Shown here: one piece after another, positions 14,666-53,493 of the stretch
Layout: each line of letters begins with the position of its first letter
How positions within the stretch are numbered: the first letter of the stretch is position 1
Assembly: GCA_964016885.1 (NCBI GenBank)
Contig: OZ024741.1
Coordinates: 182,218,001-182,282,000, forward strand
Reading direction: 5' to 3'
DNA length: 64,000 bases
DNA from: Eledone cirrhosa
Lineage: Eukaryota
Position numbers and translations under genes: made by a program
The notes under the pieces: model-generated
Told to the model about the DNA's origin: nothing
Databases searched by the model: none
Seen by the model: only the letters and a program-made list of their open reading frames with translations

Positions 14666-14835
14666 TCCTGAGGCATTATATATATATATATATATATATA
14701 TATATATATATATATATATATATATATATATATATATATATATATATATATACGTTATTCCGGGTTGAATCGGAGGTAATCACAGTAAGTAAGGTACTCA
14801 ATACATAGCAGAGTATAAAAGTTTTAATATAGATG

Positions 14836-14886
14836 AGATTCTACAGGACTAAAACTGTTTCATTCTTTAGAAGTCATCAGGAATCT
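14836..14886 (-). ncRNA. Type I hammerhead ribozyme (family A, inverted copy)
   Basis: Reverse complement of 15117-15167 with one loop change. Confidence 0.8.
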
Positions 14887-15116
14887 GGCTTTCCAAAAAT
14901 AAATGTTGTGGTATTTATATCTTTTCAGGTGGTAGGAGAGGGTGGGGAGTGGTATGGGTAGAGGTTGAAAGAAAAGGGAATTCATTAAAAGCTAAAAGAA
15001 TTAGCTTTTAATGAATTCCCTTTTCTTTCAACCAATGACCTCCACCCATACCACTCCCCACCCACTCCTACCACATGAAAAGATATAAATACCACAACAT
15101 TTATTTTTGGAAAGCC

Positions 15117-15167
15117 AGATTCCTGATGACTTCTAAAGAATGAAACAGTTCTAGTCCTGTAGAATCT
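15117..15167 (+). ncRNA. Type I hammerhead ribozyme (family A)
   Basis: AGATTC-CTGATGA-CTTCTAAAGAAT-GAAA-CAG-TTCTAGTC-CTG-TA-GAATCT: 6-bp stem I, full core, GUA cleavage triplet. Confidence 0.85.
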
Positions 15168-15399
15168 CATATATATATATATATATATATAAAATAATGA
15201 ATAAACAAAGAAACAGTTCCTTATATTAAAAATTCATCATTTTACAATCGTTTCTAGGATATATATGTTAGTGTTGGTATGCATATCCTATAGAGCTATG
15301 TGAAATTTTTTTTTTTTTTTTTATCCATATATATATATATATATATATATATATATAAGGCATATTAATATGATTGATTGAATATGTTAAATGGATAAA

Positions 15400-16030
15400 A
15401 TTTCTAAGAGAAATCAAGTAAAGAAATTTACATTTTCCCGAAACATTACAAAACTGTTGGTGTTTAGATCAAGGATCGGCAAGCCACAGGACGCAGTTAC
15501 AGTTCAGTTCACCCGGTACATGACCTCCCGTGAATATTTGACATTCCATACTAGCAAGGTCAACCCTTTCGGAAATATTTGTCGCATAACAACAACAATA
15601 CACAAGAAACATAATCTTTAAACATTGCCTAGATAGATGCAATAACACTTTGCTAAACTGCGTCTATTGTTTAGAGAATCAATTGCACATGCGGGGGGGG
15701 GGGGGGGATTATATCGTTTCTAGCAAACACCAATTATATCACAGCGTATCGAAACATGTTTAAAGCAACATCATCCAGCGCAGTGTTCCAGCAAAGAGAA
15801 TTATTAGGAGGAACTCTATCAACATATCGCTTCGTGGAACACACAGATACCGTAAATCTCCTGGTTGCCAAATCCCACTTCATTAAATAGATAAAGCCCA
15901 CCCTGAAATGCTGGAGTGCACAAGAAACATATATTGCATCTCCTGACTATGAGAATGCCCGCCTCAACAACTTTCCCAGATAAAAAAAACATACATGTCT
16001 GATGATGGATTTTAAATCTGAATGTTCTAT
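15400..16030 (+). pseudogene. Highly decayed Penelope-like element ending in a degenerate HHR
   Basis: YLTFHT..PFGNICRI thumb-like and RFVEH GIY-YIG-like patches; CTGATGA-T-GGAT-TTTAA-ATCT-GAA at ~15999. Confidence 0.4.
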
Positions 16031-16076
16031 TGTGTGTTTATCTATCTATCCTCGATTTTATCAATTTTACTGAAAT

Positions 16077-49059: not shown

Positions 49060-49610
49060 TTTGGTTAGTCTGGACGGAAAGGGGTATACCTAAGACACTT
49101 GCAGGTCCTCTTAAGCCAATGTAGGCTATGAGAGGAGGAGTGCTGAATGAGGTGAAAGTGTGTGAAAGTTGAACGAGGTCAGCTAGTTCCAAGTATCAGA
49201 GGCCATTATAATATCAGTTTAAAAGGTAGCTAGAAGAGACAGAACATCTATAAGCCAGAGACCGAAATGTGTCTGTCAGTGACTGTAAGCCAATCTGACG
49301 AATGACCTTTTTCTGGATGCGGTCTAGTATGTTTGTGTCCGTGGCAGCAGAACCACCCCAGATGTGTGAGCAACACTCCATTATGAGTTTTACTTGAGCT
49401 TTGTAAAGTATCAGGAGTTAAATACTGAAGTAATTTCTAGCTCTGAAGAGAAGAGCGACTCCATTAGATACAGCTTTAGCTCTGTTTAGGATGTGAGTTC
49501 AAATTGAAAAATCTTTAGTGAGAGCAGAGGTTAGCATTTAAAGAGAACGTAAAGACCCTAACTGCGTGCTGCCGTGTTTATGGGCGGTGAGGTACGATGA
49601 TGGTTTAGTT
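49060..49610 (-). pseudogene. CR1/Jockey-group LINE C-terminal remnant
   Basis: LFRARNYFS..LLILYKAQVKLIMECCSHIWGG...LDRIQKKVIR. Confidence 0.75.
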
Positions 49611-50183
49611 CTATACAGATACATTCAACAAAAGAGCAATAACAATAAAAATTAATCATATCTTTCACTGATTAGGTTTCAGTCATTTGACCTGACTGCG
49701 GTTATATTGGAGTAACGTCTTAAAGATTTTTCAGTGACTAGATCGATCTCAGTATTTATTTCCATCTATTATTTATTTCCACCTCTACAAGATAAAATGA
49801 ATAACACTTGCATGGACACACTGCATAGACACACACACACACACACACACACACACACACACACACACACACACACACACACACACACACACACTAACAC
49901 ACACACACATATACACTGAATATCAGTATATGATTTTGCAGGGTTGCAGTAATTTTCCAGGAAATTATGCTGCATACGAGTCATCCTCAAGAACATCAGG
50001 TACTCCTGTTTGTATGCATATATATTGTAATTTGAAGCATTTTAAACAGAATAACTGTTGTTAATCAATACAGAACAACAACAATGGTTTACATTTTCAT
50101 ATTGTATTTCCATATTTTGGGCTTAAAAGACCCTTATCTGAAAATGTTGAACAAGGTAATTCCCTTCTGTACTCATCAAAATA

Positions 50184-50367
50184 ATTGTTTCTACATTTGG
50201 CACAAGGCCAGCAAATAGCCAGTGCATTACTGGTACTTTCTTTTATCGACCCCGTAAGGATGAAAGGCAAAGTCAACCTCGGCGGGATTTGAACTCAGAT
50301 CGTAAAGGGACGTAACTATGCTGGAAAGCATGGCGTCCGACCCTCTACCGATACTGCCAATCCACCG
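50184..50367 (-). mobile_element. Full-length young SINE with TSD
   Basis: Family match; TCAAAATAAT on both sides (50176, 50368). Confidence 0.9.
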
Positions 50368-52822
50368 TCAAAATAATAAAAGCAGTTATTTTTCAAATGC
50401 TACCATATGGGTGTTGGGTTATCATAGTCGAAGTAGTAGCATTAAATCAGTAGCATTATTAGCTCAGTTCATGTCGTTTTAGTTAATAGATGGATTTGAT
50501 ATATTAGTCAGGATGGCTTCTTTAATAATTACATCTCCGATATTCCACGCTTTGATAAGAACCGTGATATACCAGTTATGACATCTTTTCAGAAGGGCTT
50601 TCTTTTTTTTTTCTTTTTTTTAATGGAAGATGCATTTGTACAACTGTGCTCTTAAATACGTATGCGCAGATGCAAGTTGTGCTGCCGGGGAAAGATCCAC
50701 AACATTTATTACAAACTATACAGTATATTACGTAAGTCTCTAAACATTCATCCACAATGTTGATGAAGTACTTGACTAATGGGCAAATATTACTGCTGCG
50801 TGTAGGCCAAGCCTGAGACGGGCATTTCTTAGTGAAGGCTCAGAGCGTGTCAGTTGTATAGTTAAAACCTATCTACAGATCACTTGACGGGATGCAGTAG
50901 TTGTTCTATCATTGAAATGCGTCTGGCTCAAAAAGCAAGCTTTTTATCGGACGCATGGACCTTCTTTGTGTTTATATTATCAAGCCAGCGCCTAACAAAG
51001 AATGTTACGTAGCAAGCTATACATTAATACGCTTTGAAATTGTTTGGTGTTATCAGCTCTGCCTCATGCTTCACTGTAACTGTTTTATATGTGTGATATT
51101 ATATTATTTCTTATAGATAGATCGGATCTGTAATGTTCAAATAGAGACCATAGATAGTGTTGTAACTTTGCTGTAGAAGTTATTAACGCGACATTTTAAA
51201 GCTATGTCAAATGCGATGTTATTGGACGCGATAAGATGTGTGTGTGTGTTGTTTCCTCCTCAAATTCAACATTATCAAACTCGCCAACGTCAATCTGTAT
51301 TGTTTACGTCATCAACTGCAACTTCGCCATTCTCTTCGAGTTTTCTAAACTAAAATGTTGTGTTTATCAGTGGTGTTGTTCATCACTCATGATAGTCAAA
51401 GGAATAGAATTTCAAATGAAATTAAAAGAGTCAAATTATGATGCCGGTCGTACTGTAACTGAAATTGCCTCAATCATAGCTATTCATGGGACGAGTGTTC
51501 AAACATTTACACAAATATTCAAACAGGGAGGCAGTATGGAACAAAAGAATTGAGGTTCTCGAAACACTACAATTTCGAGTGAAGTAAAAAAAAATTGATA
51601 TAACTTTTTAAATCTTGTCCGACATGGGCTTTTTTAATTTTTTTTTTAGGATTTTAAAGTGTTGATAAATGCTTTAAAATTCTCCATTACATATTCAAGA
51701 TGTGTAAAGTGATTTGTGAAAAAAGTTTCACTTCAGAGAACATTACACGGAAAATACGTTATGCCAGAGAATTTCAAGATCTTTTGACAGAAATGTTTAA
51801 TGATGGGGTTGGGTTGAAAATTTGAACGAAATCTAACTGTGGATAAGTTTGAACGAAATCTAACATCGGTGAATGTCTTGTGAAGTGAGTGACAGAATTG
51901 TATTCCCAGAATGTAGGTGTCTATATGTTGTGCTATGAAAACAAATTGGAACATCTACGATAAACAGAGAACTGGTGACTTCAATTACTTACGCCTTTAC
52001 GATTACATCGACGCATTTCTTAATTGGATCGGAGAAAAACGATGAAAAATGTACAAAATATATGTATAAATTACGATAAAGTAAGGTGCAACAATTTTCA
52101 CCATACAAAACTTGCAATTCTTAAAGCACTCTAATGCTTACCTTATATTACAATTTCACGAAAGGTAATCACTGGAGTCAATGTCTGGTCATAAAAAAAA
52201 TCGCTTCATCCTAGTGACATTACGAAATAAAACCTGATTATGACGTAATCGAAACTAATGATAACGAATTTGAGATTAACGTTGACAACAGTGATGTTAT
52301 AAATGTCAAATTTAAAGAGAAACTGCACCAATCTGGATATAAATATACGCATTTTTAGAAATACGATTTTACCTGTAAATATATAAACGGATGAAAACAT
52401 TTAATCGATTTTCGAACCGAGTTGGGGCTTCATTAGAAGGTGTGTATATTATCTAATCAACCACAAGGAAACATCTATTTCATGTTCATATATATATATG
52501 TATATATATATATGTGTATATGTGTATATATATATATATGTGTGTGTGTATGTATATATATATATGTGTGTGTGTGTGCGTATGTATATATATGTGTATA
52601 TATATATATGTGTGCATATATATATATGTGTATGTGTATATATATGTATGTGTATATCTATATATGTGTGTGTGTGTGTGTATATATATATATATATATA
52701 TATATATATATACACACACAAATAATGAGTCAAAACATAGCAAATATGCTTAGAATTTTATGTTTCTCAATGAGTAAGCTCACAAGACTTTGTCTAGAGC
52801 CATAATAAATCCAATGAAAAAG

Positions 52823-52948
52823 ATATATGTATATATATAGAGAGAGAGAGAAAGAGCCATATATCGTACAAGAAACACGGTATATCGTATATATACAATA
52901 TACTTGTACGATATACGGCTCTTTCTCTCTCTATATATATACATATAT
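52823..52948. repeat. Short fold-back inverted repeat
   Basis: Arms 52823-52872 / 52903-52948. Confidence 0.75.
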
Positions 52949-53300
52949 CATCTTTCTCATTTGGTCATATATACACACATACATACACACCTGTATATGT
53001 ATTTCTCTCTCTCGCTCTCTCTCTCTCTCTCTCTCTCTCTATATATATAAATATATATATATATATATATATATATATATATGAAATTATATGAAACGAA
53101 AGGAGCTGTGTGGTTACTAAAAACAAGGTTTGGGATGGTGGTTAGGACAGAACAGGAGGAGAAAGGAAGAAAGGAGTTTCCATCGTCAGCTGTAAATGTA
53201 TCCCGATCCGATGTTTCGGCGCTGAATTACAGGACATCGGTGTAGTTCGGGTGCGCATACATGCATATATATATATATATATATATATATATATATATAG

Positions 53301-53493
53301 GTTTTAATATAGATGAGATTCTACAGGACTAGAACTGTTTCATTCTTTAGAAATCATCAGGAATCCTGATGATTTCTAAAGAATGAAACAGTTCTAGTCC
53401 TGTATAGTCTCATCTATATTAAAACTTTTATACTCTGCAATGTATTGAGTACCTTACTTACTGTGGTTACCTCCGATTCAACCCGGAATAACG
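53301..53493. mobile_element. Family A fold-back mini-element (two back-to-back hammerheads)
   Basis: Palindrome 53301-53425 centred at 53363, tail to 53493, (TA)n flanks. Confidence 0.88.
53316..53366 (-). ncRNA. Type I hammerhead ribozyme (family A)
   Basis: GGATTC-CTGATGA-TTTCTAAAGAAT-GAAA-CAG-TTCTAGTC-CTG-TA-GAATCT. Confidence 0.82.

Follow-up and report, generated by a model that had tools for sequence, protein, structure and literature searches.

The window analysed here, 64,000 nucleotides of Eledone cirrhosa DNA (contig OZ024741.1, positions 182,218,001 to 182,282,000), contains five copies of a high-copy, short, non-coding repeat, which we call family A and which carries a type I hammerhead ribozyme motif and a 3′ tail. 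On balance, we favour the reading that these copies come from a source of 170–250 nt without an open reading frame (ORF), that they were inserted into (TA)n tracts by the enzymes of Penelope-like elements (PLEs), and that their stem I was kept by past selection on that source. An earlier note on this DNA had described four dispersed copies whose covarying stem I was taken as evidence of selection on RNA structure; the element is of a known kind, the family and its hammerhead-type motif are real, and that interpretation was partly right.

BLAST within the window confirmed that the copies at 14753 (A1), 20576 (A2), 36674 (A3) and 53301 (A4) are related; with A1 as reference, identity was 94.7% over 133 nt for A4 (53361–53493, E 4e-56), 80.9% over 131 nt for A3 (36679–36803, E 2e-27) and 74.3% over 113 nt for A2 (20584–20695, E 1e-11). 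The earlier count missed a fifth copy, A5, which is decayed and palindromic and lies at 26297–26392 (E 0.006 against A1 and 1e-8 against A4). None of the five copies contains an ORF. A match to GTACTCAATAC at 41524 was set aside as a chance occurrence without family A context. The parts of the family are as follows.

14753..14999, minus strand: A1 main arm, about one 250-nt unit, with a 5′ segment (14999–14887), the hammerhead, and a 3′ segment with a tail ending on (TA)n at 14752.
14836..14886, minus strand: A1 type I hammerhead, core C3 at 14880, stem I AGAUUC/GAAUCU, GUA triplet, predicted cut after 14842.
14991..15001, plus strand: A1 palindrome centre and inferred unit boundary; the arms meet at 14995/15001 with a 5-nt spacer.
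15001..15170, plus strand: A1 inverted arm, tailless, with a second complete hammerhead (15117–15167, core 15123, predicted cut after 15161).
20576..20694, minus strand: A2 main arm, with the tail and the 3′ part of the hammerhead, lacking CUG and the 5′ strand of stem I; stem III broken.
20695..20753, plus strand: A2 inverted arm, tailless, GAAA changed to GGAA; its end adjoins (TAA)n.
26297..26392, no strand assigned: A5, a strongly decayed palindrome centred at about 26346, with hammerhead remnants on both strands.
36674..36806, minus strand: A3, with a tail and a complete-core hammerhead (36756–36806); its 3′ end lies on (GA)n/(TA)n.
36756–36806, minus strand: A3 hammerhead, core 36800, stem I GGCUUC/GAAGUC, GUU triplet, weak stem II.
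36801..36814, no strand assigned: micro-palindrome of 6 bp at the A3 5′ junction; the arms meet at 36806/36809; read as the stump of an inverted arm, with a fragment of an RTE-type long interspersed element (LINE) next to it.
53301..53362, minus strand: A4 inverted arm, tailless, with a hammerhead (53316–53366, core 53360) that has 6/6 stem I pairs.
53364..53493, plus strand: A4 main arm, hammerhead core 53366, stem I broken; 68-nt tail (53426–53493) ending on (TA)n.

The pattern CTGATGA-N10-14-GAAACAG-N7-9-CTGT occurs five times in the window (14880, 36800 and 53360 on the minus strand, 15123 and 53366 on the plus strand) and was absent from 100 shuffles. CUGANGA and GAAA boxes, an NUH triplet and an open helix I are present in A3 and, as two mirror-image motifs each, in A1 and A4, while A2 and A5 do not have the type I core; judged by its sequence, the hammerhead is therefore complete in three copies only (A1, A3 and A4). 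Its layout comprises a 6-bp stem I, a stem II of TTC/GAA on a C-U or U-U mismatch, a stem III of CAG/CTG plus an A15.1-U16.1 pair, an 8-nt loop containing CTAG, and a GUA triplet (GUU in A3). Helices I/II/III of 6/3/3+1 bp could form in three motifs; stem I is broken in the A4 main arm, where 4/6 pairs remain after two changes in the 3′ strand and the pair adjoining the core is disrupted, and stem II is broken in A3, where one of four in-register pairs is left. Stem II keeps its TTC/GAA strands while its loop differs (TAAA, TTAC or GAAC). A2 lacks CUG and the stem I 5′ strand because its palindrome centre at 20694/20695 falls inside the core, and its stem III reads CAG/CGG on one arm and CAC/CTC on the other. 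Thus, of the proposal that all four copies share tail and ribozyme, the tails and the homology stand and the complete ribozyme does not extend to A2, nor are a complete core and a CAG/CTG stem III common to all copies; the cleavage position given for the plus-strand motif, 15161, was right.

A stricter type I descriptor, whose thresholds were chosen after the candidates had been seen, found ten motifs in the window, three of them in family A and seven at six other loci, and none in 60 shuffles; three of the five family A motifs with a full core pass it, and those of A3 and the A4 main arm fail. The computed ribozyme fold has an energy of −4.2 kcal/mol in the three best motifs. Stem III and its loop form no hairpin alone, and are predicted to pair as a self-duplex around CTAG at −9.4 kcal/mol (three motifs tested), or at −2.4 kcal/mol in the single motif with TTAG. 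This computed self-duplex fits the dimer activation known for animal type I motifs (PMC4209133), and cleavage would be most efficient in a dimer or with the help of a protein. A U-U at the base of helix II is also found in HHR_Amex2 of the axolotl, which still cleaves, and does so better as a dimer (PMC7229834).

The anatomy of the insertions bears the marks of PLE activity. In A1, A3 and A4 the cut site lies about 88 nt from the 3′ end, which places the hammerhead near that end. Four copies (A1, A2, A4 and A5) are palindromes in which a main arm, tail-bearing in A1, A2 and A4, is joined head to head to an inverted arm that ends 10–25 nt past the cut site, with centres at 14995/15001 (A1), 20694/20695 (A2), 53362/53364 (A4) and about 26346 (A5); A3 has the 6-bp stump, and no remainder of an inverted arm was found beyond the LINE fragment. 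The tail, 68–80 nt long, stands at one end only in A1, A2 and A4. All 3′ ends coincide and the 5′ ends differ, four of the five copies ending within about 12 nt of the ribozyme 5′ edge. A (TA)4+ tract is no more than 15 nt away from six of nine copy ends, which are not independent of one another; for the window as a whole the figure is 14%. Published PLE insertions are marked by 5′ truncation, an adjacent inverted copy, a one-sided tail, a palindrome at the junction and (TA)n or AT-rich targets (PMC8557442, PMC3846280). Taken together, these features make it very probable that PLE enzymes produced the family A insertions.

A mechanism can be proposed from biochemical work on the anole PLE, whose protein in vitro nicks AT-rich DNA on both strands and makes complementary DNA (cDNA) from two internal RNA sites, the two reverse transcription start sites defining the PLE tail and both target strands being extended; its ribozyme is assisted by protein and is dispensable for insertion in vitro (PMC11167929). 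For family A, an endonuclease would first nick AT-rich DNA, and cDNA synthesis would begin at one of two internal sites, giving an arm with or without the 68–80-nt tail. Two cDNAs, or one folding back, would then be joined head to head over an overlap of 0–2 nt, and synthesis would mostly halt at the ribozyme 5′ edge (as in four of five copies) or after one unit (A1). The position of the A4 centre is precisely that expected if two cDNAs ending in stem I overlapped by 2 nt (GA/TC), the palindrome centre contributing the outer one or two stem I pairs of its inverted arm, and in A2 both arms end on the same bases. Since the cut site lies within all five copies, the RNA that was copied would have been uncleaved, tandem or re-ligated. 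As an alternative to two joined cDNAs, an antisense template could have been copied by self-priming (PMC3846280).

In A1 (14884–14890, minus strand), stem I has a CAG right at its 5′ start, as it does in a tandem contig described below, where the CAG follows a pyrimidine run. [quoted passage not shown]

Compared with known PLE insertions carrying an inverted pseudo-long terminal repeat (pseudo-LTR; PMC3846280, PMC8557442, PMC11167929), family A has the same truncation, inverted copy, palindrome, one-sided tail, AT-rich or (TA)n targets and microhomology at 5′ junctions; unlike them, its whole insertions measure 100–420 nt and four of five junctions lie at the ribozyme 5′ edge. With the metazoan PLE pseudo-LTR hammerheads (PMC4209133) it shares type I topology, the CUGAUGA/GAAA core, a small helix III with a palindromic loop, compensatory changes among subfamilies in one genome, and an arrangement as single motifs or close opposite-strand pairs. 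It differs from them in its 6-bp helix I, its 3-bp helix II on a Y-U mismatch replacing G10.1-C11.1, its 3+1-bp helix III with an 8-nt loop, and the lack of a linked ORF in the sequence covered; given these helix dimensions, it is not a minimal motif.

Contigs from four public sequencing runs (4,679–7,339 contigs per run) were placed on 36674–37200; contig letters are unphased, loose ends are visible for 30 letters, and counts per position are lower bounds among the matches listed. Many related contigs were found, and their sequences indicate that family A has many subfamilies in both organisms sampled. In each of the four runs, loose ends beside the tail carry (TA)n (33–145 contigs per listed row), and contig joints show strand switching like that of the palindromic junctions. 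The ribozyme and tail have far greater summed depth than the LINE part; depth in contigs does not measure copy number and played no role in ranking the parts.

The nature of the source is suggested by one contig of run X1, among the matches listed, which runs to 36807, continues through 32 letters and re-enters at 36674, giving a head-to-tail period of 166 nt. The 32 joining letters begin with TGG, like A1 beside stem I, and finish in nine bases that are found at the A1 palindrome centre; with the next two bases these form an 11-mer that occurs once in the window, at 14991–15001, where 0.06 occurrences would be expected. By this match, the A1 main arm starts on the sequence that follows the tail and therefore spans about one ORF-less unit of 250 nt. 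The source was thus probably a short unit without an ORF, either of retrozyme type or a solo pseudo-LTR with a fixed 5′ end. In its workings family A would resemble a PLE pseudo-LTR or a retrozyme unit, with incomplete membership of either class.

The strongest competing explanation, which we consider possible and clearly less probable, is that the copies are ordinary 5′-truncated 3′ ends (pseudo-LTR plus tail) of an autonomous, ORF-bearing PLE, in which case the 166-nt tandem contig and A1 would be rare, internally deleted by-products, and the insertion mechanism and the reading of the covariation would be unchanged. Most PLE insertions are indeed 5′-truncated, and most PLE hammerheads are single motifs, some forming opposite-strand pairs 100–700 bp apart (PMC4209133). 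In addition, four of the five family A copies are not long enough to decide between the two readings, the tandem contig comes from one row, and the C-rich stretch of the A1 5′ segment resembles, as a resemblance only, 35260–36279 of a PLE-like remnant in the window. A random truncation, however, would not begin on post-tail sequence, as the 11-nt match at the palindrome centre suggests for A1, and the A1 5′ segment has stops in all three sense frames.

Within the short-unit reading, a more specific proposal is that family A propagates itself as a retrozyme, that Penelope enzymes used its circular or tandem RNA as template, and that the copies record this reaction; this we put forward tentatively, as doubtful at present. 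Non-LTR retrozymes are units of 150–450 nt with type I motifs, proposed to be mobilised by PLEs (PMC7229834), and retrozymes have been argued to derive from pseudo-LTRs (bioRxiv 10.64898/2026.07.22.740005). Family A resembles the animal non-LTR retrozymes of these two sources in its non-coding unit of about 170–250 nt, low GC content, 6-bp helix I, co-existence with PLEs, head-to-tail contig (one) and a U-U as in HHR_Amex2. Unlike retrozymes, its copies are dispersed, truncated and palindromic instead of forming tandem arrays, and it is known here from sequence alone; moreover, published retrozyme circles are highly self-paired, whereas the A1 circle is weakly structured. If the proposal held, each of the two target strands would have primed a cDNA, synthesis would have stopped either once it had gone exactly once round the circle (A1) or on meeting the folded ribozyme at its 5′ edge (A2–A5), and the two cDNAs would have been joined head to head. 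It would then provide direct genomic evidence, countable over thousands of insertions, for the proposed and unproven mobilisation of animal retrozymes by PLEs from circular RNA.

Several observations weigh against the reading that we favour. The short unit is represented by one contig in one run and by one copy, no tandem array of family A occurs in the window, and the A1 unit folded as a circle reaches −26.2 kcal/mol with 48% of bases paired (z −1.6 against 100 shuffles, for one aged copy). The four runs represent at most two samples and two organisms, X1–X3 being one sample and maybe the source of the window itself. As to the ribozyme, the canonical G10.1-C11.1 pair is absent, with C-U or U-U in its place, the ribozyme fold is the minimum-energy fold in none of the five motifs, and the Rfam hammerhead models gave no match in the window at the gathering score, nor in two regions of it at E up to 10. 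As to the PLE connection, no coding sequence for a reverse transcriptase (RT) or GIY-YIG domain linked to family A was found in the window, the tail of 68–80 nt exceeds the 30–40 nt of the published descriptions, and the PLE-like remnant has no DNA match to family A, its core at 36279 differing from the family A hammerhead and failing the strict descriptor.

We also considered what the stem I variants record. Stem I reads AGATTC/GAATCT in A1 and GGCTTC/GAAGTC in A3, as previously described, with 6/6 pairs in each. In a structure-anchored register, read from the sequence, two positions have changed on both sides and one more forms a wobble; no change counts as two-sided in the MAFFT alignment, where a gap placed in the 3′ strand leaves A3 out of register. 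The downstream sequence aligns best with one extra base in the stem I 3′ strand of A3, so the gain or loss of a C-G pair accounts for the difference equally well. Moreover, A1 and A4 are 95% identical and form one subfamily, and the covariation is therefore a single comparison between two subfamilies; the 5′ strand of stem I in A3 lies at a junction, where the three outer positions would pair with an unrelated strand by chance with p of about 0.06. The claim that pairing was kept despite substitutions on both strands thus stands for the complete pairing of both variants, while the count of two-sided changes is two or none depending on the register. Selection on RNA structure is likely, acting in the source elements while they spread and not in these copies.

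The copies themselves look like decaying insertions, without sign of preservation. Of the seven positions at which the main arms of A1 and A4 differ, the 83-nt tail has two and the 50-nt ribozyme part has five, including one at the fold junction. Between the two arms of A4 there are three differences, two of which break stem I, and between those of A2 all seven substitutions fall between the GAAA box and the cleavage triplet; the A1 arms differ by four bases and one 7-nt indel, with one base inside the motif, which is uninformative. In computed folds of RNA reading through the A1 and A4 palindromes from either strand, stems I–III have a probability of 0.0000, because the complementary arm is transcribed first (minimum free energies of −287 to −295 for A1 and −104 for A4), predicting that read-through RNA of palindromic copies traps the ribozyme in double-stranded RNA. 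Consequently, the check suggested earlier, 5′ rapid amplification of cDNA ends after 15161, is predicted to fail for read-through RNA.

These data make it very improbable that the copies are host-selected ribozymes or structured RNAs acting at these loci, the strong form of the earlier view. Stem I is fully paired in two variants, and three of the five full-core motifs pass the strict descriptor, as that view would have it; against it, A2 and A5 lack a full core, stem I is broken in the A4 main arm and stem II in A3, differences between copies are not depleted in the motif, and the ribozyme stems are lost in the predicted read-through folds. Selection on RNA structure, as proposed from the stem changes, thus probably holds for the source, on the strength of one comparison, and the changes likely record past selection on a mobile RNA instead of a function of these copies.

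The contigs over A3 bear on whether its stem I belongs to the family. At 36757, G is present in at least 127–128 contigs per run (85–86% of summed depth), where A1-type sequence would also give G, and at 36762, T is present in at least 128 contigs per run (98–99%). With G at 36757, the G-U pair of A3 would become G-C; the common form has a GUA triplet and probably, to judge from the unphased letters, GAAGCC, the full Watson-Crick partner of GGCTTC. About 285–300 contigs per run depart from A3 at 36782, their consensus restoring the TTC-loop-GAA of stem II, past which the outer stem I letters are heterogeneous. Other contigs track the element to 36805–36807 and then switch strand or go back to the tail end. 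From these sequences, the GGCTTC stem is likely a real subfamily feature and not just an accident of the A3 junction.

We therefore find it hardly credible that A3 represents a chimeric family, an RTE LINE with a 3′ hammerhead and tail, in which GGCTTC would be LINE-derived and the covariation a junction accident. The RTE-type frame does end directly at the A3 stem I, and the chance of pairing at the three outer positions is about 0.06; contigs, however, follow the element to 36805–36807 and then join other parts of the element, not a LINE, the predominating G at 36757 completes a Watson-Crick stem with GGCTTC, and the 6-bp palindrome at the junction lies where A2, A4 and A5 fold as well. The LINE–ribozyme junction is spanned by none of the 32 contig pieces listed (of more than 26,000), which begin at 36813 or beyond; such a gap is no proof. 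Least likely of all is that the copies are palindromic DNA transposons resembling miniature inverted-repeat elements with an incidental hammerhead match, for, short and palindromic in TA-rich targets as they are, their centres differ between near-identical copies (unit boundary in A1, stem I in A4), their ends are asymmetric with a one-sided tail, 3′ ends coincide while 5′ ends vary, and the motif is far beyond chance.

The covariation as first stated matters little, because compensatory changes among PLE hammerhead subfamilies within one genome have been known since 2014 (PMC4209133), and PLE-type hammerhead motifs occur in thousands per genome. Two details could carry more weight if they held genome-wide. 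A unit-length copy starting at the tail end would connect units of retrozyme type with the insertion chemistry of PLEs, as has been proposed and not demonstrated (PMC7229834; bioRxiv 10.64898/2026.07.22.740005). Palindrome centres piled at the ribozyme 5′ edge would bear on what PLE hammerheads do, which is a question because cleavage is dispensable for insertion in vitro (PMC11167929). A genome rich in such insertions is a good place to count unit-length copies and palindrome centres. No description of family A was found in searches of the literature on retrozymes and hammerheads in octopus and other cephalopods, which does not prove that none exists, and the supplements of PMC7229834 and PMC4209133 may list such motifs; the available text of PMC13282606 and PMC8967140 refers to Penelope elements in cephalopods and gave no match for hammerhead or ribozyme.

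The surrounding window is AT-rich animal DNA with dense (TA)n and (CA)n and many short palindromes, a repeat landscape that we presume to be like that of octopus genomes. It includes LINE fragments with RVT_1 and zf-RVT matches (27725–30146), a mariner-like remnant (10446–11311) with terminal inverted repeats of about 105 nt, and tRNA-derived repeats resembling short interspersed elements, an Rfam scan of the window giving one weak tRNA match. The family of these latter repeats is very abundant (778–891, 1491–1695, 36337–36510, 39345–41813, 50172–50379, 56176–56599, 57933–58144 and others), and is nested and clustered at 39345–41813. The LINE fragment abutting A3 (36814–37740, minus strand) has stops and an internal deletion; we take it from its motifs to be of RTE type, and Pfam has no family for its frame at 37260–37682. 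The PLE-like remnant is listed here.

34417–36330, plus strand: internally deleted PLE-like element, with RT-type motifs, a C-terminal piece at about 35150–35250, about 1 kb of C-rich sequence and a hammerhead-like core at 36279.

Its RT part is a broken frame (34417–35260) whose motifs we take to be of PLE type; two pieces gave no Pfam match, and the frame has a feature score of 0.96 to clusters; among the four listed, two have PF26215.

The 64 kb contain at least seven families with a ribozyme. Further type I hammerhead families lie at 12406–12788, 13009, 31325–32141, 59825–60163 and 60904–61575, mostly as head-to-head palindromes on (TA)n, with stem II inserts of up to about 50 nt; the arms of the 59825–60163 palindrome are 98.8% identical. 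The copies at 55575–55790 and 60904–61575 belong to one family with different palindrome centres, the shorter folding downstream of the ribozyme, which is lost. A tailed palindrome at 26481–26677 has its centre in stem II of another hammerhead, and its tail shares an exact 11-mer (26530–26540) with the family A tail, possibly, from sequence, a conserved RT start or protein-binding motif. At 58925–59244, an old, 72%-identical palindrome is centred on stem II of an intact-looking hammerhead (core 59065), which places this ribozyme, unlike those of the other palindromes, at the tip of a long rod. Palindromic insertions adjoining (TA)n with no clear hammerhead core occur at 17835–18305, 18376–18964, 32991–33172 and 52813–52961.

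Finally, motif searches were extended to viral and metagenome contigs, and among all 95 loci found there no relative of family A was recognised, BLAST of four copies returning motif matches of 23–28 nt only. The viral contigs gave 66 loci, 23 of them with at least four stem I pairs; most resemble unrelated type I hammerheads of phages, having GUC and a strong stem II. Among loci L006–L061 of the viral contigs, about 19 are phage type I hammerheads with a CAG/CUG stem III and a GUC triplet; in many of them a short common motif comes next, ahead of a probable start codon. Metagenome contigs had no match to the family A-specific pattern and 30 stretches matching the core-plus-stem II pattern. Three of the metagenome loci (L069, L093 and L094) are type I hammerhead-like, with a U-U at the base of stem II, a GUA triplet and flanks unrelated to family A, and L093 carries two such motifs 705 nt apart.

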